Source: Candidatus Iainarchaeum sp. (GTDB lineage: Archaea; Iainarchaeota; Iainarchaeia; Iainarchaeales; UBA10219). Taken from it: 64,000 nt of DNA. This document shows, piece after piece, positions 1-61,926 of this stretch. The first letter of the stretch is position 1; each line of letters begins with the position of its first letter. The notes under the pieces were generated by a model. It did not search any database, was not told the DNA's origin, and saw nothing but the letters and a program-made list of their open reading frames with translations. A program made the translations under genes and the position numbers. The stretch is from positions 254,121 through 318,120 of the forward strand of contig JAGVWE010000004.1 in the NCBI GenBank assembly GCA_018304425.1, in the 5' to 3' direction.

Positions 1-3000
1 TCCACGCGCACGCGGATGTTTTTCAGCAACTGTTCTTGTTTCTCGTTCTGGGCCTTGGACTTCACGACCACGCCGTACTGGCCGGGAACCTCTTCACCGG
101 CGAAGACCTGCACCTGCTGCGAGCCATCGCCGTCCAACACGAATTCCTTGACGGAGAGTTCGAGGTCGGACTTCAACTCGAAGCCGGTTTTCCCGCCGCA
201 CTTCTTCGTGTTAATCGTGAAGGAGGCGTTGCCTTTCTCGGGCATGGCGATGAGGTGCCGGTCGAAGCTCACGCAGTCCTTGATGTTCACGATGTTGATT
301 TGCGTGCCCAGCTTGGATTCCAGCAACTGGTCCTTGTCTTCCTTGGGGTTGCGCGCCGAAAAGGAGACGTCGGCCTTTGCCTCGCCCATGGTGCCGCCGT
401 AGGGCGTGAAGGTCAAAATCGCGTTCAGCGTTTCCCCGGCCTTCACTTCGCTGACGATGGCCCGGCTGTACGCGGAGCGCAACTCGACTTCGGTCTGGCC
501 AATGGTGACCCGGTACTCGCCCAACTGGTTGCCTTGGAAGGCGAGCTGGGCTTCGAGCCTGCGCAGGGGCACGGGCTGGCCGTTAATCGTGCAATTGTTC
601 TGGATCTGGAACTCGACGTTCACGGGGTTGCCTTCGGTGGTTGTCTCCCACTTGTTGCGGGTCAGGGTCAGGCAACCCGGGCTGTCAACATCGCCGGACA
701 AGCCGATGCCGATTCTGGCCGGTATTTCGAACACCCATTCCTGGCCAAAGTTGGTCACGGTCACCAGGAACTTGCCGTCCAAGTCCACGCGGTCGGTCAA
801 GGCCTTGCCGTCATCGCTTAAGAACACCCGGAGGGTGCCGTCCAGGGTCTGGCCCGGCTGGATGACGTAGTTATTGTAGTTCGAGACCAGCCAGTTCCTC
901 GTCTGCTGCTCGTCCAAGAGGTTCTTGAAGTTGCCCACCAACTCGATGGACAGCACTTTCAAGGGGAAGTTGGCCACGTTCTTGGCGTGGAAGCCGGTCT
1001 CGGCTTCGGGCTTGGACTTCGCGTTCAGGCTCATGCCCAACTGGTTGGGCTGGATTTCCAGGATGTTGGAGGTAACGGTTATCTCGGCTTCCTCTTGGTC
1101 GAACTTTTCCTTCTCGCATTGGAGCACGAGTTGCACGCCCGGCAACTGCGCGGGCACGCGAATCACGGCCCTTCCCTTGGAATCGGTTTTCGCCTTGACG
1201 ATGACGTTGCCCCGCTTGTCTTCCAGGCGGCAGGTGGCGTTGTCCACTTCGAGGTTGGTGCCGGAGTCGACGAGGTTGAAGACCAGGTCGTTTTCGATGC
1301 CGGAGGACAGCGTGCTCCGCTCTAACTGGATGAGCAGCTGCTTGGAGGCCGCCACCGCGACGTTGATGAACCGGTCGAAGGCAATCTGCTGGTCGGACAC
1401 CAGGCGGAAGTTGATGACCCCGTTGATGGCGCGCTGGGTGGCGAACCGGAACCGGCCCGTTATCCGCTTGTTGGGGGCCAGGTTGCCGACGTCCAGCCGG
1501 GGGAACTCGGGGCCGTTGACGTTGCCCACGCGCGGCCTCCCGTCCGCGTCGTTGACCGTGTAGTCCAGGAAGATGAGCGACAGGTCGGGGTTGGTTACGC
1601 GGAGGTTGGCGTTGGTGTGGTACAAGGCCTTCGAGTTGTTGGTGAGCGTGAAAATCATCTCGTATTCCGTGAACACCTGGGCCTGGTAGGTGTCGGTTAC
1701 GTTCTCCAAGAGGTCTTCCTGGAGGTTCCGGATGGACGCGTCAAAGCAGAAGTCCTGGTCGCAGAGGGTGCTGGCCCCGACTTGGTAGGTCTGCTTGTAG
1801 GCGTTGTCATACAATTCCGTGGTCTCGATGAAGTCATCCGCCGGGTCCCTGACCACGACCCCGTCAACGGCCCAGGCCCGGTAATAGACGTTCAATTCGT
1901 CGCCCACGGAAGCCGTTTTCCGCACCTGCACCGTGGCCTCCAACTCGTAGATGCCGGGCTTGGGGTTCCGCCAGTAGGCGTTCAGCCACTTCGCGTCCCC
2001 GTTCGTGTAATCGTAGCCGGACTCGTCGAGGCCGCTGCGCTCGTCGAAGGCCGTTGACTTGATGAGGCTCGCGCCCGGGGCATTGACTCCCTTGAGGTAG
2101 AGGTCATCCTTTTCCATGATGAGGTCGTCGCCGGTGCGGATGTGGAGGCCGGCCTCCTTGTAGGGGAGCGCATCCGGCAGCCTCAACTGCCACCTCCCCG
2201 TGTACTCTTCGCCGGCCGCCAGGTTGGTGGCCAGCCTTTCTCCCTTGAACAAGCCCAGGAACTTGACTTCGGCCGGCCGGTCGATGATGCTGGGTTCGAG
2301 GACCGCGGTGAAACCCGTGTACCCGCTGGCCTGGATTTTCCGGCTCGGCGAAACATACGTTGAATAACCGTCCTTGGCCGCGCTTACATAGACTTCCTTG
2401 TCGGCCTTGGTTTCAATGGAGAACGAGCCGTTCGCGTCCGTGTACGAGGCGCCGATTTTGCCGTTGGTCAGCGTGCTGTACACCGTCACCAGGGCAAAGG
2501 GAATGGCCTTGTTGTCCTTGTTGACCGCGTTCACGTAGAGGGTGCCCTTGCCCACCTGCATGGCCACCGTCACGTCAATGCCTCCACCGCTAGTGGTTCC
2601 GCCCCCGAACCGGAAGTCGTTGCTCCGGCCGGCGCCGAACTCGCGGAAGGCAAACGCGTAGTACAAGCCGGGTTTCACGCCCGCGAACCTTGCCAAACCG
2701 TTGGCGTCCGAGGTCTCGCTTTCATAGCCGGCCACGAAATTGGTTTCCGGCACGTACAAGGCCACGCTGGCATTGTCCACCGGGCTCCCGTCCTCGTCCA
2801 AAACCTGCACGGACAGCAACCCGCACTTCTGGGCCGAGCACTTTTCCAACGCGATTTCGGGGGTGTTCGCGGAAATCCGCGCGCTCGCCACTTTTTCGAG
2901 GACATAGCCTGCGGCTTCCACGGTCACCCGGTAGTCCACGTCGTCCGAGACGTTGAACACCACGACGCCGTCCGCACCCGTTTCAAGGGACTTGAATTCG

Positions 3001-4115
3001 CTGTCATCCGCGGCCAGCCTCAAGGTCACCCGCGCGCCGGCAAGGGCCTGGCGCGTGGCCTTGTCCACGATTTTGAACGCGATTTTTCCCTTCACGTTCG
3101 AGGTCAGCTCGAGGTTGACGGTCGCGCTCTGCCCGGCGTACACCGTTATGCGCTCGGATTGCCGCAAGCCATAGTTGCCGGTGGAGTCATAGGCTTTCAC
3201 GAGGTAACTGCCCTGGGGCTTGTTGAACACGGCCTGGCCGTCATAAGCAACCGTCGAGTCCACGGGCCCGACTTCCGGGTTCGCCAGCAGGTCCTCGTAG
3301 CGGAACAAGTCCACGTCCACGCCGCTCAGGGGCTGGCCCCGCGCGGAAACGTTGACGATGATCCGGCCGGCTTCGGCCACCACGCCTTCGAGGTAAACGG
3401 TTTTCACGTCCGAGTCCACGCTCACCGAGGCCAGGTTGGCCCACCGCTCGGAGTCGGAGATCGTTGCAATCAATTGCCCGCAGCCGGCGGGTTCTTCCAC
3501 GACGGCTTTCCCGTTGGAGACGACCATGGCGTCAGGCGCCTTCACGTAGGGGCTCTTGCACCGGAATTCCACGCGCAGTTCATCCGTAATCGGCTGGCCC
3601 AACTCGTTGAGGAACCGCAGGGTGCGCGTGCTCGCGCTCCCCGCCGCTGCCCCGCTTTTTTCGAGGGCAATGGTCTCGGTTTGCTCGTCCGCCGTGGCCT
3701 CCACGGACTTGGTCTGGCTCTTGTAGCCCTCGCCTCCCACGGTCAGGGTGACCTTGCCGCCCTTCGGCACCCGCAACTGCACCTGGCCAAAGGCGTCCGT
3801 GGTCAGGGCCTCGGTTTTTCCGTCCGAGTAGGAGACGCTGACCAGCATGTTGGGCAAGCCAATGTCCTCCGTGTCCAGCACCCGCACCGTGAGGCTGGTG
3901 TTGAAGCCCTGGAAGGCCATCGTGAAAGCGAAGTTGGCGGCCACGGCCAGCGCCACCAGGAACAGCAGGGCCATGATGGGGAAGCTGGGCAGGATGCGGT
4001 CAATGGGGTCAATGATTTTGTAGACCGGGATGACCTTGTCTATCTTGTCGAGTAATGCGTAGTAGCCGTCCTCGAGCTGGAAATAAAACTCTTTCAATCC
4101 ATCCAGGAAACCCAT
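1..4115 (-). CDS. Giant membrane-anchored surface protein (carboxypeptidase-regulatory-like/Ig-like repeats), paralogue A; runs off the window start (>1370 aa)
   Basis: Not in the ORF track because its stop lies outside the window. ATG at 4115 gives MGFLDGLKEFYFQLEDGYYALLDKIDKVIPVYKIIDPIDRILPSFP plus a TM helix. The frame is open in the segments I translated and still in register at the edge (...QEQLLKNIRVRV). Shares EAGLHIRTG, YYRAW and TLCDQDFC motifs with the 2731-aa and 2803-aa proteins. Confidence 0.9.
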   Translation of the reverse strand, partial: MGFLDGLKEFYFQLEDGYYALLDKIDKVIPVYKIIDPIDRILPSFPIMALLFLVALAVAANFAFTMAFQGFNTSLTVRVLDTEDIGLPNMLVSVSYSDGKTEALTTDAFGQVQLRVPKGGKVTLTVGGEGYKSQTKSVEATADEQTETIALEKSGAAAGSASTRTLRFLNELGQPITDELRVEFRCKSPYVKAPDAMVVSNGKAVVEEPAGCGQLIATISDSERWANLASVSVDSDVKTVYLEGVVAEAGRIIVNVSARGQPLSGVDVDLFRYEDLLANPEVGPVDSTVAYDGQAVFNKPQGSYLVKAYDSTGNYGLRQSERITVYAGQSATVNLELTSNVKGKIAFKIVDKATRQALAGARVTLRLAADDSEFKSLETGADGVVVFNVSDDVDYRVTVEAAGYVLEKVASARISANTPEIALEKCSAQKCGLLSVQVLDEDGSPVDNASVALYVPETNFVAGYESETSDANGLARFAGVKPGLYYAFAFREFGAGRSNDFRFGGGTTSGGGIDVTVAMQVGKGTLYVNAVNKDNKAIPFALVTVYSTLTNGKIGASYTDANGSFSIETKADKEVYVSAAKDGYSTYVSPSRKIQASGYTGFTAVLEPSIIDRPAEVKFLGLFKGERLATNLAAGEEYTGRWQLRLPDALPYKEAGLHIRTGDDLIMEKDDLYLKGVNAPGASLIKSTAFDERSGLDESGYDYTNGDAKWLNAYWRNPKPGIYELEATVQVRKTASVGDELNVYYRAWAVDGVVVRDPADDFIETTELYDNAYKQTYQVGASTLCDQDFCFDASIRNLQEDLLENVTDTYQAQVFTEYEMIFTLTNNSKALYHTNANLRVTNPDLSLIFLDYTVNDADGRPRVGNVNGPEFPRLDVGNLAPNKRITGRFRFATQRAINGVINFRLVSDQQIAFDRFINVAVAASKQLLIQLERSTLSSGIENDLVFNLVDSGTNLEVDNATCRLEDKRGNVIVKAKTDSKGRAVIRVPAQLPGVQLVLQCEKEKFDQEEAEITVTSNILEIQPNQLGMSLNAKSKPEAETGFHAKNVANFPLKVLSIELVGNFKNLLDEQQTRNWLVSNYNNYVIQPGQTLDGTLRVFLSDDGKALTDRVDLDGKFLVTVTNFGQEWVFEIPARIGIGLSGDVDSPGCLTLTRNKWETTTEGNPVNVEFQIQNNCTINGQPVPLRRLEAQLAFQGNQLGEYRVTIGQTEVELRSAYSRAIVSEVKAGETLNAILTFTPYGGTMGEAKADVSFSARNPKEDKDQLLESKLGTQINIVNIKDCVSFDRHLIAMPEKGNASFTINTKKCGGKTGFELKSDLELSVKEFVLDGDGSQQVQVFAGEEVPGQYGVVVKSKAQNEKQEQLLKNIRVRV

Positions 4116-4125
4116 GTTCTCGACC

Positions 4126-7100
4126 CTAGTTTGCGGTAAGCGTTGCCTTCATTCCCCCGTGGATGCTGCAGCTGGCCTCGTGTTGGCCGGCGGGCAGCGT
4201 CACGCTCATGGACTGTGAAGCGCCCTTTTCGAGGATGACTTCACTGCCCCCTATGGCGAACGTATGCTTATTATTCCCGTTATTGGTGATATTAAACCTA
4301 ACCGTTCCCGCGTTCACCGTGGACGGGCTCAAGGCAATGGCGTTGTCGGTCAAAGTGGCGGTTACTTCCTGGACCTGCGCGGGCTGCGGGGGCTTTGGCT
4401 GCGCCGCCGTCCCCTGCTCGGTTTGCTTCAGCAGTTCCGCCTGGTTCCAGTAGAGGTTCATGCCGGGCCCCTTGACTTCCGAGCCCACTTTCACGGTCTG
4501 GTCTTCCTTCATTTCCACGCAGACCCTGCCCTGGCCCAGGAGCTTCACGAGGTTCTCGAACGTGTAATCCGAGTTCAGCCGCTCGCCGCGCTGGTTGAGG
4601 GTAATCGCTTGCTCGCCTTCAATGGACTTGGCCTGGCCCTCGTCCCAGGCCGTGAGCTTGAACTTGTCCTTGCCGCAGTACACCTGGAGTTCGCTGGCCG
4701 TTACCTCTCCCGAGCGCGTGGGCACGAAGGTTACCGCCTTCAACACGGCCCGTCCATTCTTTGGCTGGTCGTCGAACATGACGGCATGGTACTTGTCGCT
4801 GCCCTTGCCCTTGCACAGCCGGCCCACGGCTTCCACGGTTTCCAGGAACTTGCCGGTCTTCCCGGTGATGGTGTTTGCACTGGCTTCCCACTTGATGAAC
4901 TCGTTGCCGGGCGTGGCTCCCTTGACGTTGAACTGGTAGATGAGGCCGGCCGGGGTGAACAAGTCCTTGCTGGTTTTCTCGACTTCCAACTGCAGGGGCA
5001 CGGGATCCGAGGGCTGGTAGATTAGCGCGCCGGGCACGTACTGGTCGTTGACTTTGCCGGTCGGCAGCACCAGGCTCAAGATTTTTCCAGTCTTGGTGTC
5101 GTCATAGCGGTTCACGTAATCGAACAACACGTGCCGGTAACCAGGTTTGTCGCCGCCAATGGCTTTCGCGACCCTGGCGCTCTCGCTGTCGGCGTAGGAG
5201 AAGAACATCTTGTCCTGCTCACCCGAATCCACCTTGTACGTGGTGCCATAGCCTTCCCGCAGCAACTCCGCACCCTTCAACCCGACCAGGTTGTCCAAGG
5301 GCAAGCCGAACAAGGGGTTCGAGGCAAACCGTTCGCGGATGGCCTTGAGGGGCTTCTCGAATTTCATGCGCACGATAACCATCCCGTCCCGGTACACCTG
5401 GAGCCTGACCCGGTACAAGCCACTATCGAACTTCGTGATTTGCTTGGGGTTCTTCTCGCATTCCTCGGAGTCGTCGCAGAACAGCCATTCCTTGAAGGGC
5501 TTCAACTCGCCCTTGGTGCCGCCGGCCGTCTTGCCCAGCTTGTCCTTGAAGGCTTCCTGGAAGTCGTCCTTGAAGTCGCTGCTCAACCCGTCCTCTTTCA
5601 GGTACGCGTTGAACTCGATGTTGTCCTTGTACAGCTTGTAAATGCCTTCCGAAGCGAACTTGTACCGGTCCTTGTAAGCGCTGACTTCCGCGACCCGGTC
5701 CAGGGAACCATCCCGCATGAGCTTCAGCTTTTCTTCTTCGGTCAAGCCCAGCTTGTCGCGGATGCCCACCCGGAACTCCATGGAGTCCTTCAAGAGGTTC
5801 AAGGCCTTCAAGGTGAGGGCCTTCTGTTCCGCGGCCGGCCTGGACTTGAAGGTGTCGAACACGAAGGACTCCGGGTTCGGCAGGCTGGCAACCGTTTGCT
5901 GGAACCGCTGGTATTCTTCGAGCGTCAACAAGTAGAAGCCGCCCTCGACGTCCACTCCATTGTAGGAGCCGGTGAACGAGTAACCCGTTTCCTCGAACGA
6001 GTGCGCGCCCAACTGCTTGAGCACGGCCTGGTACTCGGCGGGCGTGATTTTCAAGCCAATGGCTTTCGTGGGCGCGAACGGAATCTGGATGACCATGTCC
6101 CGCTGGATGTTCTGGAACTCGTCCAGCAGCAACCGGTTCGCCATGATTTCCCTCGTGCGGTCGACCAGGTTCTTGGCCTTGGCCGGGTCCCTCAGGCTTT
6201 CAATGGGGGCCTTTGCGGCCTGCAAGAACTGCAAGGCCAGCTGCTCCATGCGCGTGGTCAGCACGCCCAGGCTCTCGCCCCGCAGCAGGACGTTGTCCTG
6301 GGTGCCATCCCTTCCCACGAAGTAGAGCCTGTTCTGCATCGGGCTCTTGGAATCCTTGTCCACGCCCTTGAGGGTAACCGCCTTGATGAGGTGCTTGTAC
6401 AAGTACAGGGAACTAATCCGTTCGCCCAACGCGTTCTCTTTGGGCAGGTTCTTCATGGCCTCGCTGACCAGGGAAGCCTTTTGCGCCACGGACTCGCCGA
6501 ACTGCACGGCGTCGCAGAACTTATAATTGGTTTCATCCGGCTTGGCCTTGCCCAGCTTTCCATCGGCTCCCGCCTCGTACTCGTACTGGCCGCACGTGAA
6601 GGGGTTCACGCCCTCCTTTTTCTCGCCGCCCCACCGCCAGTCGAACAACAGCTTGTCAAACCCGTAATCGGTTACCACGCCCTGGCCTGACTTGCCGTTC
6701 TCGCACGCGAACTGGTCGGTTGCCTTGACCTGCACCTTCCTCGGCTCGCCTTGGTTGATGCAGAAGTTCAGGGGCAGGATGACATTGCCCCGCTTGCCGT
6801 TGATGGCCCTTTCCACGGTTACCGTCACGGTCTCCGAGAACTTCGTGGCCCGGCCGTTCCAGCCCCCGGCCTCGTTGTCCTCGCTCGCGTCCACCCGCAT
6901 GATAATGTCGTGGCCGCCCTTCGGCATTTCGCCGCCCAACAGGCCGCCCAACGTGAAGATGGTCTGGCCCAGCGAGCGCAGGTTCTCTTCCAAGGAATAG
7001 CGGTTGATTTCAAAGCTCACCACGACGCCGTTCTTCTCGATGCGGTTGTCCTTGACCTGGATGCCGGTGATGCGGTCCATTCTCCCGCAGCCGCCGACTT

Positions 7101-10100
7101 CGCCTCCCGGGGTCTGCTTTGCGAACCGGAAGAAGGGCATCGGCATGTCCTTGGCCGTGTCGTACACGTACACCCCGCCGTTCTTTTCCAGGAGGTCAGC
7201 GGGAATGCAGTCGTTTTCGGTGCCCTTAAAGGTGTGGTTGCTCAGCTTGAAGGCGTCCGGGTTCAGGCAGGACTGGGGCGTCGCGTTGGGGTCTCCATAA
7301 CTCATCCAGCGCTCCGCGAACTCGCCCAATGCGAGCAGGTCCTGGATGGTGACGTGGAAGACCCTGGAAGACCTGGAGCCCAGCCGGTTCGAGAAGAACA
7401 CGACCAGGTCGGTGGGCGCGTTCACCCGGTAATAGCCGGCCGTGGCGAAGTAGCTGAGGTTGCCCAGCTTGGCCATGGGGCTGCCCTCGAAGGGGAAGGG
7501 CGGGGCGTTGTTCTGGTACTGCTGGGTGTTGGGAATCAAGTCAAAGGAAACGATTTGCGTGACCTTGCCCGTGGACTTGGTTTCAAGCCGCTCGCCTTTC
7601 ACGCTCCACGACAAAATCATGTCCCGGTTCGAGAAGCTGATGGACGAGGGCACGGGCTCCACGCGGATGCCTTCCGCGTAACACTTGTTGATGACCTCGA
7701 GTTTCTTGGGCTTGCCCACGAAGTTCTGCAGGCTGATGGTGCCGGCAGGGTCGATGTCGATGCAGTCGGAGTAGCTGCGGCTGAACTCGTTGTCCACCGT
7801 CACGGTGATGGTGCGCAGCGGCACGGAGGGCTCCTTCGAGTTCTTGAGCTTGCCCCTGGCCTCCACCGAGTAGTTGCCCAGCACGTAGGACGACTGCACG
7901 GAAACGGTTTGCTCGCTGTTGGGTTCGAGAACAACCGACCGCTGGGGGCTCACGAGCAGCCCGGCCTCGGGGTTGAAGTCGATGACCACCGCGGAAGCGC
8001 AGTTGTTTTTCACGCCGAAGTTGCTGCTGTTCCCCTTGGTCTGGCCCGTGGCCTGGCCGCCGTACACGTCGTAGTTGTAGTTGGGCGCGCGGTAGTCCGA
8101 GTACGGGTAAGCGCGGAGGTTGGCCGGGTAACTCGAATACTGGGAGTTATAGGTGGCCTGGTTATAGGGCTGGTTGTAGTAGCCGTAATTCGGGTTGTTG
8201 ACCTGGTCGGGGTAGTTCTGGGGATAGGGCTGCCGCGTGCCCGGGTCAATGGGCACGCCTTGCTCGTTCACCACGTACTGGGAGCTGGACACCGGCACGT
8301 TGGATTGCGGGTTCTGGTAACCGGAAAACGGCTGCGTGACCCCCGTGCTATACCCGTAGGAATTCCGGTACGCGTCGGGGATGGCGTAATTGAAGGGGTC
8401 ATACGTCGTGTTGGCATTGTATTGCCCGTAGCCGAGGTTGAAGGGGTTCGAGGAAACGACCAGCTTGTCGGCTCCAATGAATTCAACGCATTGCACGAGG
8501 TCGTTGATGCGGACCAGGGCCCGCACGTTCTGCGTCAGCCGTTCCTGGCCCGAAGCCGTGTTATGCGCCGCCGTGAACACGAGGGTCGGCTTCGACTCGC
8601 CGGAAGAAACCTCGGCCGGCTTGAATTCCAGGGTAAGCGGCACTTCCGCGTTCTCGGCCAACACGTTCAAGGCCTTGGCCGGCTGGTTGGTCAAGCGCAC
8701 CCGGTTCGCGCCGCCCTCGGAGGCGTCCACCGAGAGGAAGAACTCCCCCAAGGGGTTCTTGTTGGCTTCCACGACCTTGACTTCAACATTCGTCAAGGGA
8801 ATGGCCTGGCCGTTCACCGCACAGTTGTTTTTGAGCGTCAATTCATAGGTTTTCACGCCGGCGTTCGTGGAAATCTCGAGGTCCTGGGGGAAGACGCTGA
8901 AGCAGCCGGCCTCATCCACTTCGTCGCCGAACCCGATGCGCAACTCGACGGGGATGCTGGCCGTCCACTGCCGGTTGAACTCCCGGTTGGACACCACGAC
9001 GTCCAGGCTCCCGGAAACCTTCTTGGGCTCCAGGATGCGCGCAGCCGCGGGCGTCAAGCCGATGACGAACTGCAGGTTCTGGTCGCTGTTGGTGGGAAGC
9101 TCGGTGCCCGCATAGCTGTCCGCGAAAGTGAATTTGAAGAACTCCTTGAAGGCCGTGCTCTCCCGGACTTCTTCGACGACGAGGGGGATTTCGGTCTGGT
9201 TGCCGAGGAAGAGGGAGTGCTCTTTTTCGGGGTTCGAGCCGATGACCAGCAAGTCCTTTATCTGCCCGGGCCGCACCGTGAGGATGTTCTCCGAAACCGT
9301 GATGACCCTTTCCGTGGACCTATACCCCGGCTTTTCCACCAAAACCGTTATCTTGGAGCCGGCCCCGGTGGGGGTCAACTGGTAGACGAAGATGCCTTCC
9401 GAGTTCGTCTTCCCGCTGACGAGGGTAACGTCATTGCGCCGGATGGTCACGGTGGCATCCGAAATCGTGTTGTCGGTTCCCTTTTCCGTGACCTTGATGA
9501 GGAGGTTGTTGTTGATGAAGGGCACGATGATTTTCGGCAGCACTTCCAGCTCCATTTCGGCGGCGGCCAGGACGTTCAGCCTGATCCTCCGCTCGAACAC
9601 CCTCTGCCCCTGGGACACCAGCGAGACCACGACATCCGTTACCCCCTCGCGCTTGGTCCGGAGTTTCACGCTGCCGAACACGTCGTCGTCCCTTCCCATG
9701 TTCCCCACGGGAACCACCAGCTGCGAGCCGTCCAGGGTGCCCTTCTTCTCCATGCCCGAGACGTCCGTGACGCTGTACTCCGAGAACGAGACCGCGGAGG
9801 CCGCGTTCTCCACGTGGAGTTCCGTGCTGTTGAACTGCCGGTCCGAAATGCTGGTGACCGTGAAGCTCAGCTTGTAACTGCTCTGGATCCTGGCGGGATA
9901 GTCTTCGAGGACCGCCGTCTGGATGCCCGTGCCCAAATCCTCCAAGCCAAAGGTATAGCAGAAGGCGTCATCGCACAACGTGCTGGGGCCCGCGCTGAAC
10001 GACCGGGTCTTCGTGTTCGCGTAGAGGTCATACCTTCCCGCGACCGACACCTTGCTGCCCAGGATGTTGTCGGCCGGGAACCGGATGAAGCCTCCCCCAG

Positions 10101-15970: not shown

Positions 15971-16597
15971 TTAAACGCCTCCACAAGCCGTTTCAAGGCC
16001 TTTCACGGCTTCCAGTCGCTGGACGTGCCGGGCTTCCTCGGCCGCGACATCCAAGCCCAACTCCGCGAACCCCAATCGTTCGCTCTCGTTTGGGTACTCA
16101 GCCAAAAAGTTGCCGTACTGCAGGGCATAGCTTTTCAGCGCCTGCAACCGCTTCGCGCCAAAGCCATCGCGTTCCCTGAACAAGGCCAGGCTCGAACAGT
16201 AGTCGCTGAACGCGAGGCCATCGATTCGGGCCACGCGCGCGTTGTACGCTTCCTCGTTCAACCCAGCGTCCGCCATCGAAGCATACACCCCGGCCAGTTC
16301 AGCGGTTGCCTTGCTGTCCGCCTTGCCGGTTGCGGCCGAAAATTTTTCCTTCAACGCCTGCCACTCGCTTTCCGCCAAAGCGGCCGCCGAAAAGTCGAGG
16401 CCCACCGCCTGGATCCCTTTTTCCGACCAATAACCATTCAATTCATCCGTGGAAACGCTGCCCCCCACCCTTGGAAGGTTGATGTCAGTCTTCACGTTCG
16501 CGCCCGTTCCCCCCGTGTCCTGCCTGGGAGCCGTGTTGTACAGGTAGGCGGCCACGGCCAGCAACCCCACCACGAGCACGATTTTTCCCAGCTTCAT
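15971..16597 (-). CDS. Membrane-anchored helical hypothetical protein, 208 aa
   Basis: N-terminal TM KIVLVVGLLAVAAYLY; stop directly abuts the next ATG. Confidence 0.8.
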   Translation of the reverse strand: MKLGKIVLVVGLLAVAAYLYNTAPRQDTGGTGANVKTDINLPRVGGSVSTDELNGYWSEKGIQAVGLDFSAAALAESEWQALKEKFSAATGKADSKATAELAGVYASMADAGLNEEAYNARVARIDGLAFSDYCSSLALFRERDGFGAKRLQALKSYALQYGNFLAEYPNESERLGFAELGLDVAAEEARHVQRLEAVKGLETACGGV

Positions 16598-40752: not shown

Positions 40753-40757
40753 TGTAG

Positions 40758-46392: not shown

Positions 46393-46396
46393 AGGC

Positions 46397-49446: not shown

Positions 49447-49986
49447 ATGGCCCTGGAACTGGTTCCCCTGGTCGTAAACACGGTTTTCGACCTGTTGAGG
49501 CTGAGTGCCCTCACGGTTTTGCCTGCCTTTGTTTTGGCCCTGCTCACCAACGCCTTGCGCAAGCGGTTGGCCGCGGGCTTCCAGTGGACCTGGCTCAAGT
49601 CAGCCTTGGTTGCCCTCTTCCTCGTGGCCTTTGCTTTAATCAACCTCGTGTACTGGCCGGACTGGTTGTCCACCCTGGGCAAGGCCACCTATGGAGAGAT
49701 TCCCCCCGAGTTCAGGCCCACGCTCCCTGAAACGGTTTTCGGCTATGTCATGGTGGAGGCCCGGCTCTTGTTTGTGGCCCTGGTCCTGGCCTTGCTGGCC
49801 CTGCCCCTGGCCTTCACGGCCTTGTACTGGAAGGAGCACTGCCAACGGAAGTGGGGTCTGCGGGGCTGGCTGTCCACCCTGGCCGGGCTTTATTGCACGC
49901 TGTTCCTGGCCTGGGCCGTGGTCTTGCTGGTGTTCCCCTGGAGCATTACGGGAATCCTTTACCTGGTGTACTTTGGCTTGGGCTAG
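49447..49986 (+). CDS. Integral membrane protein (~4 TM), 179 aa
   Basis: ATG at 49447 after a TATATAT box; hydrophobic segments. Confidence 0.8.
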   Translation: MALELVPLVVNTVFDLLRLSALTVLPAFVLALLTNALRKRLAAGFQWTWLKSALVALFLVAFALINLVYWPDWLSTLGKATYGEIPPEFRPTLPETVFGYVMVEARLLFVALVLALLALPLAFTALYWKEHCQRKWGLRGWLSTLAGLYCTLFLAWAVVLLVFPWSITGILYLVYFGLG

Positions 49987-53000: not shown

Positions 53001-54698
53001 TACTTTGCCCCCACCGCGTCCGAGAAAAAGAAGGACGCCGCCAGCGAAAACGAGTTGTCCACCGAGAAAGTGGCCCACAAAATCGATGAATTCAAGGACA
53101 AGTACCTGGACGCCTTGAAGAGCGACACCAATTCCTTCACCCGCGAGGCCTTTGACGAGATAGGCGACCAGGTCAGCGACTTCGTCGAGAAGGGCCTGAA
53201 GTACGACATCCTGCAGGCCACCCTGGCCCTGAAGACCGAGGCCCAGGGCCAGCTCCACGGCTCCAAGCTGTTCTCCTTCTGGTGTGGCAAGGGCTGCGAA
53301 ATCCTGCCCAGCGAGTACATCATGGACGGGAAGAAGATCGTGAAGGATGATAAGACGGGTGCCGCCCTGGAATTCGACTTCGAGAAAGGCAAGCTGTCGT
53401 ACACGGACAAGGACGGGAAGACCAGAGACCTGGTCACCAGCGAGGACCACGTGCGGCTCGAGGAAACCAACACGAAAATCCCGGCCGAGGAAATCCCGCA
53501 AACCATCACCAAGGTCACGGTGCCGGACAACAACAAGCTCCTCTTGGAAGTCAACGTGGACGGCATGGCCTACGTAAAACTCGACAACGTCTTGGACTGC
53601 ATCCAGAAGGGCGTGGAAGAACAGACCGGGCTCGGCCTGAGCTCCAACAACCTCTACGACGCCTTCGGCCGCGTGCAACTGGTGGTAAGCGACTCGCACC
53701 CGGTCATCAAGCCCGTCAAGGACAGCAGGGAGCCGCGCATCATCGCCGAGGGCACCCCGCGGAAAATCGCGGAAGGCGCGGACGCCAGGCTCGAGGTCTA
53801 CACCCCGGTCCCGGGCTCGAAGCTCTTGCCCGTCAAGCTGCCCCAGTCCTCGGATGGGCTGCCCAGCCTTGGAAACCTCAAGTCCATCCAGTTCGAGAAC
53901 GGTTCGATTACCTATAAGACCACGACGGGAGAACTGCTGGTCTACCTCAAGCACCACAAGCAGGCCGTGCTCGAGCAAAACGACGTGGCCGGCTTGAAAG
54001 CCAAGCTCGAAACCACGCAGAACCCGGAGACCGGCTGCGAGGAACCCGCAGTCCAGTTCGAGGTGCAGGGCAACCCGGACTCGGATAGGGCCATGGCCGC
54101 GGCCGCGAACTTCAACAAGTCCCTGGACAAGCTGGGGCCCTTCCAGGTCTTCGAAACCGAGGAACACCGTTACATCCTTTACGCGGACAAGGACTGCAAG
54201 CAGCACCTGAAAGTCATCGACAAGAAGACCGGCAAGGCCCAGGACTTCGTCGGCAAAGCCATCCAGACCCCGGATGGACTGAAGTTCGTGACCGACGATG
54301 GAAAAGAGCACACCCTCAAGTTCAGCGAAAAGGACGGCGTGCCTCAAATCCAGTTCGACAAGGAAAAGCCGGAAACCCTCAAAGCCGCGCAGGGCCGCAA
54401 TGGCGCCTTCTACTATGACCCCGAGACCGGCTTATGGTACGCGGAAAACGGCCAATTGATTCCCTTGTTGGAGGCCTTCAAGCAGAACGGCATCAACGTC
54501 CAGGGCCGGGACGATGGCTCGGCGACCGCGAAAGCCGAGGGCAATGTCTTGAACGTCAGCCTCGGCGACAAGGGAACAGGCGGAAGCCTCTTGAACCTGC
54601 CCTCGCTCCCCGAAGAGCCGCTGGCCCTGGCCTTGTTCGTGCTGGGCCTCTTAGCCGTTTTCGTGTGCGTGCGCGGGACGCGCGTCAACCGGGCCTGA
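50067..54698 (+). CDS. Large secreted protein (~1543 aa) with C-terminal LPSLPE-TM-basic anchor
   Basis: Signal peptide KKHVQALFLACLLLNTVFAPLAFA; C-terminus NLPSLPEEPLALALFVLGLLAVFVCVRGTRVNRA. Confidence 0.88.
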   Translation: MGMQSGKKHVQALFLACLLLNTVFAPLAFADRSAPSAASPPGTTVPSSPLARAGNLELFFQAAPPAKAAAVPTTSPQPSASGATTPPGATTQFACKTDSLSAQETQAIQELLREGVVGSELSAGTPKDKDRDKLDANQLIVTNPSQDENVAVAVKIPTQKVEPMAVGFLLNRTIAGPFAFGLSLQDSVRTARCESLTGNCAVNAVNLQYRNSGAGVVADFKNVANDFQEFMDGNRHFRNLTAEEDDTLRGYMSLEDRNEFQYKGGERKEMALIPNSILAEDFDARMQTNCMNSKCVINTYSLFDKYFNSWYSAQLVVGTAAPTLVAESRRLWAVGQTRGYLPKFEDFPFMQAIRKSRLFQPSSWLTLTRMKAATKRIQDAGYFESLVQPMTSWDPVNPAMGRYLSKSEVSYNWWGKLWAKDGLLTKVTSVEDQRAIVNYMNEARKFSKSMKLLEDEAEDSMQQAIKQFGNGSPEHKAALVEYGRVASSNALEYDDVLGYDWPDEWSHNNPNFSWRDFAMKDALTGKYRPFLQEHRYYREVMRKFRNDGHWANWNEALTDGSRMETRGRNLLIYEPKPTGKEVGYVDVASLHNEIQKYETGEFTVRLNDGTFIQLDHTTLPLIQEKASGQVPYYRMGWAEAQEITPEMFAADLTGTRARYFRADRAARNSEEWYRDLLTKGYGGRRYTSILSKALQEEEDLLKTYFTLKGGFKWTAIPFAYNWAKRGLGSEDFSVYMLPDEWKDLLIYTKDAAIYKDAYIDFFANEGSDQGDIFNQVLQKLPWKFVYDEVSQKFNPLKDLYNAITRQELRSETENLAFFLHTQENCPGCLVSINPGNREAPPEQWEFSPYFYLNERANSYFLEDLQTQRAREKGQTLIAFAHHTNLKGKTGDIDGGTIDLVKAKKDETTCSQVISKNFFGLGKDSLFGESRIGLALGTMETLSYFTFFWAGVFVSAVQQIVLAPILQDCVDDEEGYYIHYFAPTASEKKKDAASENELSTEKVAHKIDEFKDKYLDALKSDTNSFTREAFDEIGDQVSDFVEKGLKYDILQATLALKTEAQGQLHGSKLFSFWCGKGCEILPSEYIMDGKKIVKDDKTGAALEFDFEKGKLSYTDKDGKTRDLVTSEDHVRLEETNTKIPAEEIPQTITKVTVPDNNKLLLEVNVDGMAYVKLDNVLDCIQKGVEEQTGLGLSSNNLYDAFGRVQLVVSDSHPVIKPVKDSREPRIIAEGTPRKIAEGADARLEVYTPVPGSKLLPVKLPQSSDGLPSLGNLKSIQFENGSITYKTTTGELLVYLKHHKQAVLEQNDVAGLKAKLETTQNPETGCEEPAVQFEVQGNPDSDRAMAAAANFNKSLDKLGPFQVFETEEHRYILYADKDCKQHLKVIDKKTGKAQDFVGKAIQTPDGLKFVTDDGKEHTLKFSEKDGVPQIQFDKEKPETLKAAQGRNGAFYYDPETGLWYAENGQLIPLLEAFKQNGINVQGRDDGSATAKAEGNVLNVSLGDKGTGGSLLNLPSLPEEPLALALFVLGLLAVFVCVRGTRVNRA

Positions 54699-56084: not shown

Positions 56085-56831
56085 TCAGGTAATCAGGGGG
56101 GGCTTGCCTTCGAACTTTTCGGAGGCGTCGTGGGCGTCCTTCATGCGCTCCATTTGCACGCGGAGTTCCTGCTCGGTTTCCTTGGCTTCCTTGAGCAGGG
56201 GGCTCACGTCGATGTCCAGGCCCAGGATTTCGTCGAGTTTCTTGACGAGTTCCGCGGAAGCCCGGTAGTCGGCCGCGATGTTGACGTTGCCCATGATGGA
56301 AAACGCTTCAATCTCCGAGTTCTTGAGTTGCAGTAAAATCATGGCGGTAACGCCCGTCGTAATCCCGTCCTCGATGATTTCCACGCCGTGTTGTTTGAGC
56401 AGCGCCTTGGTCTTGTCGCTGGTCGCAATGCCGTAAATGATGTTCTTCGCGTTCGCGTCGGGTTCCGTGTGGATGCCGGACAAGGAGATGATGCGCTTGA
56501 TGCCCTTCTTGCGCACCCAGTCGACGACGGCTTTCGCGATTTTCGTGGTGTAGGCCTTGGGAATGATTTGCTCGGAGATGAGGATGATGAGTTTCAGCTT
56601 GTCGTGGACGTAAATCCGCGAGGGGTTGACCGGCATGCCTTCGTGGATGCGGATGACGGGCACGAAGATGTCGGAGTCGAGGTAGCCGTGTTCCCGGAAC
56701 TTCAACCGCTCGATGAGGTACTTGGCCCCGATGGTGCCAATCAAGCCCATGCCGGGGAAGCCCTCGATGAGCGTGAAATCGCTGAAGTTCCGCGGCTCGG
56801 ATTCCACGAGGTCGATCCGGATATCGGGCAT
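56085..56831 (-). CDS. PAC2 family (proteasome assembly chaperone-like) protein
   Basis: LIEGFPGMGLIGTI, PSRIY, IISLSG, GITTGV and IDVSPLLKEA motifs; probable ATG at 56831. Confidence 0.9.
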   Translation of the reverse strand: MPDIRIDLVESEPRNFSDFTLIEGFPGMGLIGTIGAKYLIERLKFREHGYLDSDIFVPVIRIHEGMPVNPSRIYVHDKLKLIILISEQIIPKAYTTKIAKAVVDWVRKKGIKRIISLSGIHTEPDANAKNIIYGIATSDKTKALLKQHGVEIIEDGITTGVTAMILLQLKNSEIEAFSIMGNVNIAADYRASAELVKKLDEILGLDIDVSPLLKEAKETEQELRVQMERMKDAHDASEKFEGKPPLIT

Positions 56832-56878
56832 GCAGTCCAATAAAGCGCTGACTTGTTTTTAAGGGTTGCGGCAGGCCA

Positions 56879-58504: not shown

Positions 58505-59404
58505 TCACGCCAAATTGTACACGGCGAGGCTCAGGGGCAGCAAGAACAACGCGTAGAGGACTGCTTTCCGCAGGTTGTTTTCCTGGTTGGCGATGAACAG
58601 GGAGGCGATGAGGGCATACTCCGCGATGTAGCCCTGGTTGCCCAGCAGGGCCGCGTTCAGCAATTCCTTTCTCGACCGCGCGTCCAGGCCGAGGTCGAGG
58701 CCGGTGAGGGCGTCAAAGTTGAGGCCCGAGACAATGCCCGAAATGAGGGCCAGCACCAGGGGAACGATGACGCCGCCCGCCAGCAGCAACGTGTATTTTT
58801 CGACGACCAGGCTGGAAACCCGTTCGCGGAGGATGGACTGGGTTTCCAGCAGGTCCTCCGCGGCCTCCTTGAAGGTCTGGCTCATGTCGGCCCCCGAATT
58901 GTAGCCCTGCACCAGCAGGTTCAGGGCCCTGGAAAGGCTCTGGGAGCCGACTCGTTTGGCCATCCCGCCCAGGGCCTCCTCCACGGACGAGCCCAACAGC
59001 AACTCGGTGTGCGCCTTCCGAAACTCCTGGGAGAGTTCGCCGTAACTGGCTTCCCCCAGGTATTTCACGATGCGCGTCATGGGCGTGCCCGAAGGAAAAA
59101 CCGATGCCTGCAACAGGACGTCCGGCACCAGCCGCTCGATGCCGCGCTTCCGCTGTTCTTCCAGGTAGAGGCGCAGGGAGTAATGCAGGACGGGAGGCAA
59201 GAGGAAGGAAGCCAACGCCAAACAGATTATGTAGAGTTCCTTGAGCTGGAAGTAGAGGGCCGCCAGCAACGCCAGCACGGAGAGCCCGGCGCCCTGCACG
59301 AGGGCCTTGCGCAGCAGTTCCCTGAAGGCGGCCCGCTGCTCCCTTTCCACGAGCCGTTCCTCGAATGACTCCCTTTTCCTTCCAATGGCAATCCATTTCG
59401 GCAT
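58505..59404 (-). CDS. T2SSF-domain pilus platform protein (TadC-like)
   Basis: IERLVPDVL...YGELSQEF...GSSVEEAL...SGADMSQTF plus TM helices; ATG at 59404. Confidence 0.88.
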   Translation of the reverse strand: MPKWIAIGRKRESFEERLVEREQRAAFRELLRKALVQGAGLSVLALLAALYFQLKELYIICLALASFLLPPVLHYSLRLYLEEQRKRGIERLVPDVLLQASVFPSGTPMTRIVKYLGEASYGELSQEFRKAHTELLLGSSVEEALGGMAKRVGSQSLSRALNLLVQGYNSGADMSQTFKEAAEDLLETQSILRERVSSLVVEKYTLLLAGGVIVPLVLALISGIVSGLNFDALTGLDLGLDARSRKELLNAALLGNQGYIAEYALIASLFIANQENNLRKAVLYALFLLPLSLAVYNLA

Positions 59405-59597
59405 CTCATTCCCCAAACTGCCACAGCCAGTTTACATCTGTGGACTGGTCCCGTCTCCCTTCGGTCGACGGGACGAGGCCTGCCTTCGACAGGCCCAACT
59501 GGCCGAAGGCGTCTGTGGACGTGCCCTGTTTCGCCCCGAAGGGGCTCAACAGGGCGGTAGTTCGAATGTGGACTGGATTTGGTGTCATCTCATTCCC
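59402..59597. other. 172-bp multi-hairpin insert flanked by the 12-bp direct repeat CATCTCATTCCC
   Basis: Repeats at 59402-13 and 59586-97. Stems: GTCCCGTC/GACGGGAC, GGCCTG/CAGGCC, GCCCTGTT/AACAGGGC, GCCCC/GGGGC; imperfect outer stem 59427-37/59566-76. Confidence 0.8.
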
Positions 59598-60410
59598 TCA
59601 TGAAGGCCGGAGTCTTGGCCTTGATGACCGCGAGCACGGCCAGGTCCACCGCCGGAAACAACACCAGGGCAATGACGAGGATTTGCGCGGCCTGACGAGG
59701 ATTTGCGCGGCCGTGAACTTCATCTTCAAGAACATGGAGCCGATGACGACGTAGGCCTGGAAGAACGCGGGAATGATGGCGGAAACCGCGATGAACAGCA
59801 GCGAGAACACCACGAGTTTGCCGGAGAACTCCTTGGACTCGGCCTTCTGCTTCAGCAACAGCTCCTTGGCCAGCTGCCGGATGGGCTCGCCGTTCTTGTT
59901 CCGGCTTCCCTGCTCGTACACGCTCACCAACTGCGAGACCGCGCGCTTCAACATGCTGGAGTCAATGCGTTCGCTCAAGTGGAACAAGGCTTCCTGGATG
60001 CTGGCACCGCTTTCCCGTATCTCGCGCAGGACTTTCCTGAACTCCCGGGCCAGCAAACCATAGCTCCCGGTCTCGATGCTTTCCAGGGTTTTCTCGAAGG
60101 GCACGTTCATGTTCAATTCCACGCTGACCTGCATGAGCGCGAAGGGCAGGTCCTTCTCCACCTGGCCGGCCAGTTCCTTCTTCTTCAGCACCGGCAAATA
60201 GAGGAAGACGCCCAACGCGAGAACCATTGAAAGGAAGGCGTATAACAGCCCGGAAGCCATTTTTGCGGATGCGATGCTTCCCACGAACCACACCAGCAGG
60301 CCCACCAGGGCAGCCGCTTTCAGGGCCTGCTCGGCATACCTTTCCGCTTCCACGTTCATGCCCGCCACCTTCAGGTTGGCGCGCAGCCAGTCCAGCTCGT
60401 TTTCAAACAA
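59590..60410 (-). pseudogene. T2SSF-domain platform protein (TadB-like), last TM helix frameshifted by a 20-bp tandem duplication
   Basis: VEKDLPFAL...YGLLAREF...SGASIQEAL. TGACGAGGATTTGCGCGGCC is duplicated (59673-92 / 59693-712); without it the gene ends AQILVIALVLFPAVDLAVLAVIKAKTPAFMRE*. Confidence 0.8.
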
Positions 60411-61926
60411 GGACTGTCGCCTCCACGGCCGCGTTCTTGTCGGCTGTTTCCAGCAGGAGTCTTTCCCGCCGCGCGAGTTCCTCGCCCAACGCGGCCTCGC
60501 TCAAGCCGAACGTCCGGCACAGTTTCTCGCGGAGGCGCGTGCTCTCGTTCTTCTTCTGCAGGGTTTTCCCGGCGTAATCGAATTCGAACAAGGTGTTCAG
60601 GCCCGCGCGGCCCTGCTGCATGACCACCTCGCTCAACTCGATGACGCGCCGGACTTCGGTGCGTGCATTCGAGGCGAGGTCGATGCTGTTCCACCGCTTC
60701 TGCACCAGGATGAGGTCAATGGAGGCCAGGTCCATTTCGAGGACTCCGAGTTTCTTGAGCCGCGTCAGCGCCTCGCTCCCCGACTGCGCGTGGAAGGTGG
60801 CGTAGCTGCCCTTGCCCTGCCCGGCCAGCAGGGTGTCCACGAAGGCGGAAACCTCTTCCGGGTTCCGGATTTCCCCCACCACGATGCGGTCGGGCCGCAT
60901 CCGCAAGGTGTCCACGATGAGTTCCTTCATGCCGATGCCGAGGTTGTCCACGACGTTGAGTTTGACGAGGTGTCGGTGGGGGAGGTTGATTTCCGGGGTT
61001 TCCTCCACCACGATGATGCGCTCGTCTTTTGGCACGAACTCGAACAAGGCGTTCAAAGTACTCGTCTTGCCGGAACCCGTGTTTCCCCCTATTAGCAGGC
61101 TGAAATCGGTTTCCATGAGCATCCAGAGAAAGGCCAGCGCCTCTGCGGAAACAGTGCCTTGCCGCACCAGGTCCTGGGGCGTGAAGGGCTTGGCCCTGAA
61201 CTTCCGGATGGTGGCGTTGGGCCCGGTGAAGGCAATGGGCTCCATGCTGGCGTTCAGCCGCGCCCCGCCCGGCAGCGTGGCGTTGAGTTTCGGCGTCTGC
61301 AGGGTCAGTCTCCGCCCGATTTTGCGGCTCATCTTGTTGATTAGGTTGCGGACCACGGTTTCGTCGGTGAAGCAGACGTTGGAGCGCAGCCAGCCCATGC
61401 CGACGTAATACACTTGCACGGGTTTTTCCCGGCCGAGGCCGATGATGGCAATCTCTTCCAGGTGCTCGTCGCGCAACATCCAGCTGATGGGGCCGAAGTC
61501 GAAGATGAGCGAGTCCAGCACCCGGGACAGGTAATCCCGTTGGTCGGCGTCCAGCTTCAGGAAGTTCTTGCGGCAGTAGGCTTCCAGGGTGTTCTCGATG
61601 AGGGCGTGCTGTTCTTTCTCGATTTCGCGTTCCCGGAATTCCTGGAGGACTTCCTTGACCAGCAAGGCTTCCTGCTTGCTGAGTTCGGGGATGTTTTTCA
61701 CGGCGTAAATCAGTTCGCCGCGCGCGTTCTTCATCAAGTCGAATTCGTCGGCTGACTTGAGCACGCGCGCGTTTTCCTCCTTCGAGGGGTCGAAGGCAAT
61801 CCATCCGAGGATTTGCTCGGCTTCGGCCCGCTCCCGGAACGGGGTTCTTGCCTGGTGAGCCTTTCTTTCCTGGAGCGCAGCCCCGCACTCCCGGCACTGC
61901 TGCAAAGCCTGCACGTTATTCGACAA
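60403..61926 (-). CDS. Second pilus assembly ATPase (TadA/CpaF/VirB11 family)
   Basis: GNTGSGKT, EETPE, LRMRPDRIVVGEIR and ATFHA motifs. Confidence 0.92.
   Translation of the reverse strand: MSNNVQALQQCRECGAALQERKAHQARTPFRERAEAEQILGWIAFDPSKEENARVLKSADEFDLMKNARGELIYAVKNIPELSKQEALLVKEVLQEFREREIEKEQHALIENTLEAYCRKNFLKLDADQRDYLSRVLDSLIFDFGPISWMLRDEHLEEIAIIGLGREKPVQVYYVGMGWLRSNVCFTDETVVRNLINKMSRKIGRRLTLQTPKLNATLPGGARLNASMEPIAFTGPNATIRKFRAKPFTPQDLVRQGTVSAEALAFLWMLMETDFSLLIGGNTGSGKTSTLNALFEFVPKDERIIVVEETPEINLPHRHLVKLNVVDNLGIGMKELIVDTLRMRPDRIVVGEIRNPEEVSAFVDTLLAGQGKGSYATFHAQSGSEALTRLKKLGVLEMDLASIDLILVQKRWNSIDLASNARTEVRRVIELSEVVMQQGRAGLNTLFEFDYAGKTLQKKNESTRLREKLCRTFGLSEAALGEELARRERLLLETADKNAAVEATVLV

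Follow-up and report, generated by a model that had tools for sequence, protein, structure and literature searches.

We investigated a window of 64,000 nucleotides (nt) from Candidatus Iainarchaeum sp., which represents the last 64 kb of a 318-kb contig (JAGVWE010000004.1) in a genome of 1.48 Mb and seven contigs, with a guanine plus cytosine (GC) content of ~59–60%. In our judgment it is rather likely that this window contains most of a two-module cell-envelope super-locus conserved across the phylum Iainarchaeota (Diapherotrites, DPANN archaea), and that the encoded parts together form a contact structure. Module A comprises four giant anchored proteins (G0, G1, G2, and G3), a large pilin-like protein of 575 amino acids (aa; p575), a mini sortase whose gene is divergent from those of a filament ATPase and platform protein (ATPase1 and platform 1, together machine 1), and seven small pilins. 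Module B comprises the secreted protein G5, a Tad-like ATPase (ATPase2), and two platform proteins (platform-2a and platform-2b, together with ATPase2 machine 2). The gene content of the super-locus, the order of its genes, and its sequence motifs are conserved in relatives. The whole covers ~76 kb, corresponding to ~5% of the 1.48-Mb genome, and the fourth anchored giant, G0 (2,375 aa; contig C3:243119–250243; L007:8917–16044), is located just upstream of the window. The DNA sequencing runs in which the locus occurs are groundwater or soil metagenomes, and no RNA runs were listed among the runs that contain it.

Conserved Gene Order

Forty relatives, all from the same order and all from other families, with no close kin among them, were compared with the window. 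Gene-by-gene BLAST maps revealed a shared order in three of these genomes that belong to different families, G016 (45% GC), G015 (53%), and G010 (31%). It begins with ATPase2, platform-2a, platform-2b, a PAC2-family gene, small genes, G5, a ~180-aa membrane protein, and a zinc-ribbon protein, and it continues with the pilins, platform 1, and ATPase1. The sortase comes next, with a variable slot on either side of it, and the block closes with giants 1 to 4, the first of which is followed by p575. This p575 gene is the class III pilin-like gene that the original prediction had pointed out inside the giant block, and its position between giants 1 and 2 is the same in all three mapped loci. By reading, the ~180-aa membrane protein occupies the same place in the three mapped genomes and its N-termini are similar there, which BLAST did not confirm; a pair of small membrane proteins beyond the last giant is, by reading, likewise common to the mapped loci. 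This order is kept across genomes of 31% to 60% GC and at protein identities of 24–45%. As a control, we followed the flippase-like gene that flanks ATPase2 here; in G016 a distance of 160 kb separates it from the block, and in four other genomes it either lies elsewhere or has no match. Synteny therefore ends at the edge of the block.

Linkage was counted by hand from the listed coordinates over the 40 relatives. Of the 27 genomes that have the sortase gene and ATPase1 on one contig, 25 show the two in divergent orientation and at most 6 kb apart, the exceptions being G002 and G033, which belong to one genus; in eight genomes the two are on different contigs, and in five one of the pair was not found. 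A giant with the shared leader lies within 25 kb of the sortase in at least 22 genomes (150 of 183 leader matches listed). For G5, a distance of at most 12 kb to ATPase2 was counted in 20 genomes, and one of at most 25 kb to ATPase1 in 18. A single contig of G041, from a sister order, likewise carries a giant, the sortase, ATPase1, and G5, and their relative order is the same. The features of the window are as follows.

3..4115 (-): G1, anchored giant of class 3; N-terminal 1,371 aa, the gene running past the window start (2,659 aa in full)
4126..12309 (-): G2, anchored giant of class 2; 2,727 aa, cupredoxin-like C-terminal domain (longest open reading frame 4126–12321, 2,731 aa)
12486..14213 (-): p575, pilin-like; 575 aa, class-III-like N-terminus, between giants 1 and 2
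14246..16597 (-): variable accessory genes for two small proteins, secreted or anchored, of 574 aa and 208 aa
16667..25078 (-): G3, anchored giant of class 1; 2,803 aa, the giant closest to the sortase
25192..34601 (-): variable hotspot outside the conserved system; AAA_14/DUF4143 ATPase, orphan G4 (26533–34026), and a 192-aa anchored protein
35980..36570 (-): mini exosortase/archaeosortase-family protein (TIGR04178); 196 aa, divergent from ATPase1
38443..43064 (+): filament machine 1; ATPase1, 769 aa (38443–40752), and platform 1, 768 aa (40758–43064)
43069–43515, 43584–44102, 44119–44616, 45832–46392, 46397–47038, 47023–47550, and 47550–48371 (+): pilin-like genes
48368..49348 (-): acidic protein with a C-terminal zinc ribbon; position conserved
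49447..49986 (+): ~180-aa membrane protein directly upstream of G5
50067..54698 (+): G5, secreted protein; 1,543 aa with signal peptide, LPSLPE, membrane helix, and basic tail
56085..56840 (-): PAC2-family protein (Pfam); positionally conserved
58505..61926 (-): filament machine 2; platforms 58505–59416 and 59598–60410 (TadB/C-like) and ATPase2, 507 aa (60403–61926)

Five open reading frames (ORFs) of 1,371–2,803 aa account for 33,135 nt, or 51.8% of the window (51.3% with trimmed starts), in agreement with the earlier statement that giants fill more than half of it. They do not form one class, as had been supposed: G4 is an orphan, G5 belongs to an unrelated family, and the others are leader-bearing paralogues. 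Pilin-like genes are present as predicted, although they number eight and not about nine, with seven at 43069–48371 and one at 12486–14213; their class-III-like N-termini were read directly from the translations. Pfam and NCBIfam also identified accessory genes, namely an AAA_14/DUF4143 ATPase, a MazEF pair, an IS5 transposase, two acylphosphatase/coiled-coil paralogues, and the PAC2-family protein. No tRNA genes were found in the window.

Two Filament Machines and Their Pilins

Pfam and NCBIfam searches recognized two type IV filament ATPase/platform sets, as the original prediction had stated. ATPase1 and ATPase2 matched T2SSE (PF00437) with 60.8 and 130.8 bits (cut-off 24.9), and platform 1 and platform-2b (58505–59416) matched T2SSF (PF00482) with 27.9 and 50.5 bits (cut-off 25.2). 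Platform 1 has nine hydrophobic segments, and platform-2a (59598–60410) matches ArlJ/UpsF weakly. The genome also carries, elsewhere, two prepilin peptidase genes of the Peptidase_A24 family (PF01478), and with them the components by which a type IV filament is recognized are present: ATPase, polytopic platform, class III-like pilins, and prepilin peptidase. Neither ATPase reached the archaellum FlaI equivalog NF058587 (154.8 and 205.4 bits against a cut-off of 550) or the BasE-type model NF053672 (71.4 bits for ATPase1 and 120.1 for ATPase2 against 1000), and no archaellin families appeared in the general Pfam/NCBIfam scans of the window ORFs.

ATPase1 orthologues share 56–75% identity; of the 40 relatives, 30 have a full-length and 8 a split or partial orthologue, and 2 yielded none. 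ATPase2 orthologues share 41–56%. Residues 303–691 of ATPase1 resemble afGspE, CpaF, and FlaI among PDB sequences, and the N-terminal extension of ~300 residues had no PDB sequence match. Within the first ~55 residues (38473–38650) there is a conserved Cys-x2-Cys ... Cys-x2-His pattern, lost in G037, G023, G009, and G041, which suggests a small metal-binding domain on the pilus motor. When ATPase1 residues 11–330 (24-row alignment) were modeled together with residues 1–46 of the giants' leader (16 rows), the complex prediction gave no answer (score 0.01), an outcome that favors neither binding nor its absence. Five orthologues, those of G008, G025, G035, G034, and G031, are split near query residue 500 by an in-frame insertion of ~500 aa within open frames of 1,225–1,361 aa; this insertion may be an intein. 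In machine 2, the last ~29 residues of platform-2a (59598–59690, minus strand) are rich in Arg, Cys, and Trp and cannot be aligned to the orthologues, and platform-2a and platform-2b are separated by 182 nt here versus 16 nt in G016, so that a frameshift or an assembly error may be involved.

A (K/R)GQ or KGF site precedes the hydrophobic helix in seven of the eight pilin-like genes and in their orthologues; the gene at 44119–44616, a paralogue of its neighbor, is without the (K/R)GQ site. No pilin family model in Pfam or NCBIfam matched the pilin-like genes. Six of the seven small pilins have collinear orthologues in G016 and G015. The large pilin-like protein p575 has 128 homologues, all of them named hypothetical, and shows a weak match to the ComGF N-terminus (E 9e-4). 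Its structure, predicted with AlphaFold2 (AF2) from 50 sequences, consists of a 71-residue N-terminal helix and a globular head (predicted local distance difference test, pLDDT, 86; predicted template modeling score, pTM, 0.83). Foldseek found no match in the PDB at E ≤ 0.001 (best E 0.15). In a search independent of Foldseek, the top nontrivial folds were PilX (Z 5.6, root-mean-square deviation, rmsd, 2.8, 85 residues aligned) and GspK (Z 5.2, rmsd 2.8, 90 residues aligned); these matches are weak but agree with a pilin fold for the modeled protein.

Four Anchored Giants Share an N-Terminal Leader

G0, G1, G2, and G3 have a common architecture, in which an N-terminal leader of ~45 aa is followed by a single membrane helix. 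The leader is rich in Tyr, Asp, and Glu, ends at an IPSFP-like junction before the helix, and has no Pfam family match. A leader profile matched 195 of 201 sampled genomes of the phylum, and among 1.84 billion representative sequences it found 1,099 clusters, always at the N-terminus (residues 1–68 or so). In the 40 relatives the leader occurs in 38, with two to seven and mostly three to seven copies each, and the open frames that carry it are, among the matches listed, mostly 2,100–3,450 aa long and arranged in same-strand arrays. A word-indexed search with residues 1–70 of G2 gave eight matches, too few to say much on taxonomic breadth.

Beta-sandwich domains (CarboxypepD_reg, SpaA, Big_1, and bMG3) are confined to the first ~700 aa of each anchored giant; in G1, CarboxypepD_reg, SpaA, and bMG3 were found there. 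Tandem beta-sandwich domains, as expected of an adhesin with immunoglobulin (Ig)-like repeats, are thus restricted to this part, and the giant Ig-like stalks that had been proposed are borne out for it but not for the remaining 1,700–2,100 aa, nor for G5, which lacks Ig repeats. That remainder had no Pfam match except for one cupredoxin-like end (Cupredoxin_1 at the C-terminus of G2, E 2e-7). When the anchored giants were cut into 350-aa segments, 20 of 31 had no Pfam match, and the distal halves of G2 and G3 had no matches among PDB sequences.

In a quick maximum-likelihood tree of 16 giants from four genomes, based on the first ~1,300 aa (the thorough search was incomplete and long branches were flagged), the four positional classes formed four clades with support of 99–100 (99 for the G1 class and 100 for the G3 class). 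Positional orthologues share 24–42% identity (28–42% for G1) and can be aligned over most of their length when all high-scoring segment pairs are counted, and the paralogous giants within this genome share 22–29%. No alignment was obtained for the last quarter of class 1 or the third quarter of class 3, nor, in the most distant genome only, for the last quarter of class 2. Judged by this tree and these identities, the three giants in the window and the fourth outside it are paralogues that diverged anciently, and we infer that they are fixed subunits and not a variable adhesin repertoire.

Several further observations concern the giants and their leader. G0 has a hydrophobic stretch of ~40 residues, the size of a hairpin, near residues 1476–1514, in the middle of an extracellular-looking, Cys-rich protein; such a stretch is also present in the G016 and G015 orthologues and is below threshold in G010. 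A fifth leader carrier lies outside the super-locus (contig C1:37541–37693, profile E 5e-22; region C1:37214–45000, L008), in an ORF of at most 762 aa with CarboxypepD_reg domains that is followed by a 1,686-aa ORF without a family match. Further giant ORFs elsewhere in the genome encode 2,818 aa (C1:493709–502162) and 3,562 aa (C5:92889–103574), and the former, which lies at the end of a contig, is separated by 7 kb from a further T2SSE-type ATPase (C1:485479–486765). A P-S-(L/F)-x-P-like motif stands directly before a membrane helix in three places: IPSFP in the giants, LPSLIP in the small pilin pil6 (47023–47550), and LPSLPE in the G5 tail (54590–54698). One enzyme or interface might conceivably read all three.

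A Mini Sortase and Its Candidate Substrate

The enzyme that the original prediction had called an archaeosortase carries the signature of the exosortase/archaeosortase superfamily (TIGR04178, 39.7 bits against a cut-off of 23). Conserved residues of the Cys, Arg, and His type in membrane helices are catalytic in exosortases and archaeosortases, and the motifs LCTG, FN..RI, and H..FR are invariant in all seven aligned orthologues. The sortase was found in 36 of the 40 relatives. It remained below the cut-offs of the named subfamilies ArtD (20.1 versus 125 bits), XrtX (39.6 versus 170), XrtG (30.2 versus 102.75), and XrtH (28.4 versus 86), and no ArtA, ArtB, ArtC, or ArtE model was listed for it at E ≤ 0.01. 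In the sister-order genomes G172, G046, and G047, the TIGR04178 model likewise located a sortase gene, which adjoins ATPase1 and points away from it. Loss of the sortase in a sister family with diverged G5 tags was considered and rejected, as the family model located the gene adjoining ATPase1.

The ORF of G5 (49851–54698) has 1,615 aa, and its most likely start is the ATG at 50067, giving 1,543 aa. A full-length, single-copy orthologue with 33–46% identity exists in 39 of the 40 relatives, and no Pfam or NCBIfam family matches the protein. Its tail consists of P-x-(L/M/T)-P-(E/Q/T), a hydrophobic helix, and basic residues, and this arrangement is kept in all 19 complete orthologues (one locus with an interrupted frame being left out of the count), in 11 of which the tag is exactly LPSLPE. 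In this genome, G5 is the only real ORF with such a tail. The 55-aa tail matched no catalogued NCBIfam sorting domain even at E ≤ 10, a search in which the HMMER filters may drop very weak matches. In sister orders the tail occurs in diverged forms, and the enzyme diverges there too. G5 is therefore a likely substrate of the mini sortase, and because a single tagged ORF, a conserved tag, and invariant sortase motifs occur together, the two appear to be a one-enzyme, one-substrate pair.

Residues 91–1290 of G5 were modeled with AF2 from 51 sequences (pLDDT 79, pTM 0.62). The model combines alpha and beta structure, with long helices and a C-terminal part rich in beta strands; the protein has 16 cysteines and no Ig repeats. 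For this segment, Foldseek gave no match in the PDB at E ≤ 0.001 (best E 0.17) and no clear match among viral structures (best E 0.15). The best hit of a VIA wide search (Z 7.8 over 77 residues of helical repeat) was within the noise range of the tool, and Protein Atlas gave no usable match. On these family and fold comparisons, G5 is a family separate from the anchored giants.

A Proposed Contact Structure and Its Alternatives

In the reading that we prefer, the small pilins would be built into a short pilus or pseudopilus by machine 1 and the prepilin peptidases encoded elsewhere, and p575 would be its large minor or tip pilin. The four giants would be inserted beside or onto this filament via their shared leader, as fixed subunits, each held in the membrane by the one N-terminal helix that follows the leader. 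The mini sortase would remove the tag of G5 and anchor the protein at the surface. Together, these parts would be the main outward-facing contact structure of the cell, probably serving adhesion to partner cells or surfaces. The locus probably builds the contact surface of the cell, and the more specific roles that had been proposed for it, including host attachment, capture, docking, payload delivery, and cell bridging, are conjectural.

A number of observations weigh against this interpretation. Attachment of Iainarchaeota to hosts is not an established fact. The giants carry no sortase-type C-terminal tag, and a (K/R)(G/N) pair precedes the helix in only two of the four giant classes, so that cleavage of their leader by a prepilin peptidase is doubtful. 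The pilin fold matches of p575 are weak, with Z scores of 5.2–5.6 that tie with trivial helix matches, and no pilins belonging to machine 2 lie close to it. In G029, 195 kb separate module A from module B, and the 0.8-Mb genomes G002 and G033 keep every part but in scattered positions; the modules can therefore work unlinked. Scattering of the genes in relatives had been named at the outset as the finding that would speak against a single apparatus, and the genes proved collinear except in these two genomes of one genus and in the two-block split of G029. Finally, the PAC2 gene, one of two PAC2 copies in the genome and probably a housekeeping-type passenger, is as syntenic as the other locus genes, and order alone is therefore no proof of function.

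The main rival explanation, which is less probable in our view but has to be taken seriously, is that of an envelope gene island: independent modules (adhesion pili, a sortase with its substrate, and giant adhesins) would be adjacent through co-regulation, chromosomal context, or low recombination, without forming a single machine. The separation of A and B in G029, the dispersed but complete sets of parts in G002 and G033, and the housekeeping-type PAC2 gene that rides along are what such an island would lead one to expect, and its variable slots accept unrelated insertions such as G4, toxin–antitoxin (TA) modules, and IS5. It accounts less well for the divergent sortase/ATPase1 pair, which is kept in 25 of 27 genomes and recurs in sister orders, for a pilin-like gene fixed between giant 1 and giant 2, and for an order that persists at 31% to 60% GC and 24–45% identity while the flank is lost.

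A second possibility, which we consider unlikely, is that G5 is the surface-layer (S-layer) protein or the principal protein of the envelope, given a lipid anchor by the sortase as happens in Haloferax, that the giants are ordinary envelope or sheath parts, and that the locus serves general cell-wall biogenesis. G5 would fit such a role: it is a single-copy protein of ~1,500 aa that 39 of 40 relatives possess, it has a signal peptide, and no other protein of the genome shares its tripartite tag. However, it lacks an Ig-like or other S-layer family match: the test gave no Pfam/NCBIfam match and no clear fold match, the latter for the 1,200-residue model searched as a whole. The mixed alpha/beta model with long helices and 16 cysteines also argues against this role. 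S-layer proteins are fast-evolving, unlike G5, which at 33–46% identity is conserved about as well as the cytoplasmic parts of the locus. By the hand counts, moreover, G5 is linked most tightly to ATPase2 and not to the sortase.

That the giants are a diversifying adhesin or variable-tip repertoire produced by recent tandem duplication is very improbable and, on the sequence comparisons, largely refuted: the paralogues do form a tandem same-strand array with the nonaligning quarters noted above for G3, G1, and G2, but the four classes are ancient one-to-one orthologue groups, paralogues share 22–29% identity while orthologues align over most of their length, and the copy number is stable at mostly three to seven per genome. 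The variable tips that had been postulated are borne out only in part.

Returning to the contact structure, a bolder version of it can be formulated, which we regard as a long shot. The giants, p575, and the pilins would form one membrane-anchored contact organelle with a type IV filament motor; this machine would recognize the leader and its IPSFP-type junction as a new targeting signal; the whole would be a bindosome-like route for megadalton surface complexes; and hydrophobic elements (such as the G0 hairpin, or G5) would engage the membrane of the partner. In that case, the Iainarchaeota would have an archaeal cell–cell contact apparatus of a class not described before.

Variable Slots and the Orphan Giant

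G4 (26533–34026, 2,497 aa; longest ORF 26533–34098, 2,521 aa) is a signal-anchored, coiled-coil protein with Pro/Thr linkers. Only a single weak match of 64 residues was found for it, in 1 of the 40 relatives, and its slot is empty in G015 and occupied by other genes in G016 and G010. By this distribution, G4 is classed as an orphan insertion, as are the TA, IS5, and AAA_14 genes. The 574-aa protein of the region 14246..16597 had no match in the three mapped loci, and its 208-aa neighbor had one in G016 alone, at a different slot.

The variable slots hold an AAA_14/DUF4143 ATPase (25192–26370), a HicB-like ORF (34748–34972), and a MazE/MazF pair (37530–38136), and they seem to be insertion hotspots. 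Two paralogous acylphosphatase and coiled-coil proteins, encoded at 34956–35630 and 44624–45472 (both on the minus strand), are almost the same in sequence over their C-terminal halves. The three mapped loci have no counterpart of either, and the gene at 44624–45472 interrupts the pilin operon. An IS5-family transposase gene (56919–58151, plus strand) separates PAC2 from platform-2b, two genes that are adjacent in G016, G015, and G010. The last giant and the two conserved small membrane proteins are separated by two insertions, a Cys-rich protein of 475 aa whose start resembles a lipobox (L007:7440–8867, minus strand) and a PIN-like ORF (L007:6649–7086, plus strand).

Comparison with Known Systems

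The mini sortase and G5 were compared with archaeosortase A/PGF-CTERM, known from the S-layer glycoprotein of Haloferax volcanii, and with exosortase/PEP-CTERM. The family signature and the invariant Cys/Arg/His motifs are shared by the enzyme of the locus, and the tripartite arrangement of motif, helix, and basic tail is shared by G5. In contrast to these systems, the enzyme has only ~185–200 aa and falls below all named subfamily cut-offs, the LPSLPE-like tag is uncatalogued with apparently one substrate per genome, and the sortase gene is paired with a pilus ATPase and not with its substrate. The S-layer protein of Haloferax is reportedly lipid-anchored via the archaeosortase (10.1101/2023.06.07.544157).

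Large secreted or C-terminally anchored proteins have been described in archaeal type IV pilus (T4P) loci of Methanococci and Thermoproteales (Makarova, Koonin and Albers 2016, PMC4858521); in that text, the words DPANN, Diapherotrites, and archaeosortase do not appear. Those loci resemble the super-locus in their FlaI/GspE-class ATPase, TadC/FlaJ-class platform, fast-evolving class III pilins, and large proteins. They differ from the super-locus, which has four ancient giants of 2,400–2,800 aa with a shared uncatalogued leader and, besides these, a sortase, a Tad-like second motor, and an ATPase extended by 300 aa at its N-terminus. Another study reports that some DPANN T4P islands hold unrecognizable pilins (Makarova 2019, PMC6393860). 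The "novel secretion system" of Makarova 2015 (arCOG01314, MoxR, vWA; PMC5898192) was considered and is a different system.

The p575 protein may be likened to the tip complexes of type II secretion systems (T2SS) and T4P (GspK and PilX, with the adhesin PilY1), with which it shares the long N-terminal helix and globular head, matched at Z 5.2–5.6 over 85–90 residues. Unlike these, it is larger, rich in cysteine (12 Cys), and encoded among giants rather than among other pilins. In the bindosome assembly system (Bas) of Sulfolobus, a type IV filament machine and small pilin-like proteins place large non-pilin surface proteins that have class-III-like N-termini. The idea of a filament machine placing large surface proteins is common to Bas and to the arrangement proposed for Iainarchaeota. 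The leader of the giants differs from that of Bas substrates in being ~45 aa long, acidic, and aromatic instead of short, basic, and class III, and its cleavage is putative. The SPEARE proteins of Nanohaloarchaeota are reportedly very large surface proteins in small-genome archaea, proposed to serve host contact. Great size, surface location, and a small genome are shared with the giants of Iainarchaeota, but no shared family was found, and the latter have a specific leader, four fixed paralogues, and a pilus/sortase locus.

Implications

The surface structures by which DPANN archaea meet other cells are poorly defined. In our searches of the literature on surface structures, pili, and archaeosortases of DPANN archaea and Iainarchaeota, no description of the super-locus was found. 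Pili-like appendages have been imaged between ultrasmall cells and hosts in groundwater, with no genes assigned to them (He et al. 2021). The super-locus adds an uncatalogued sorting tag, a minimal archaeosortase subfamily, and an N-terminal leader family without a Pfam model. It provides a parts list for the whole phylum: four orthologous giant families, a diagnostic leader, a large pilin, a mini sortase for which there is one candidate substrate, and two motors. Metaproteomes can be searched for these proteins with the leader profile and the LPSLPE-type tag.

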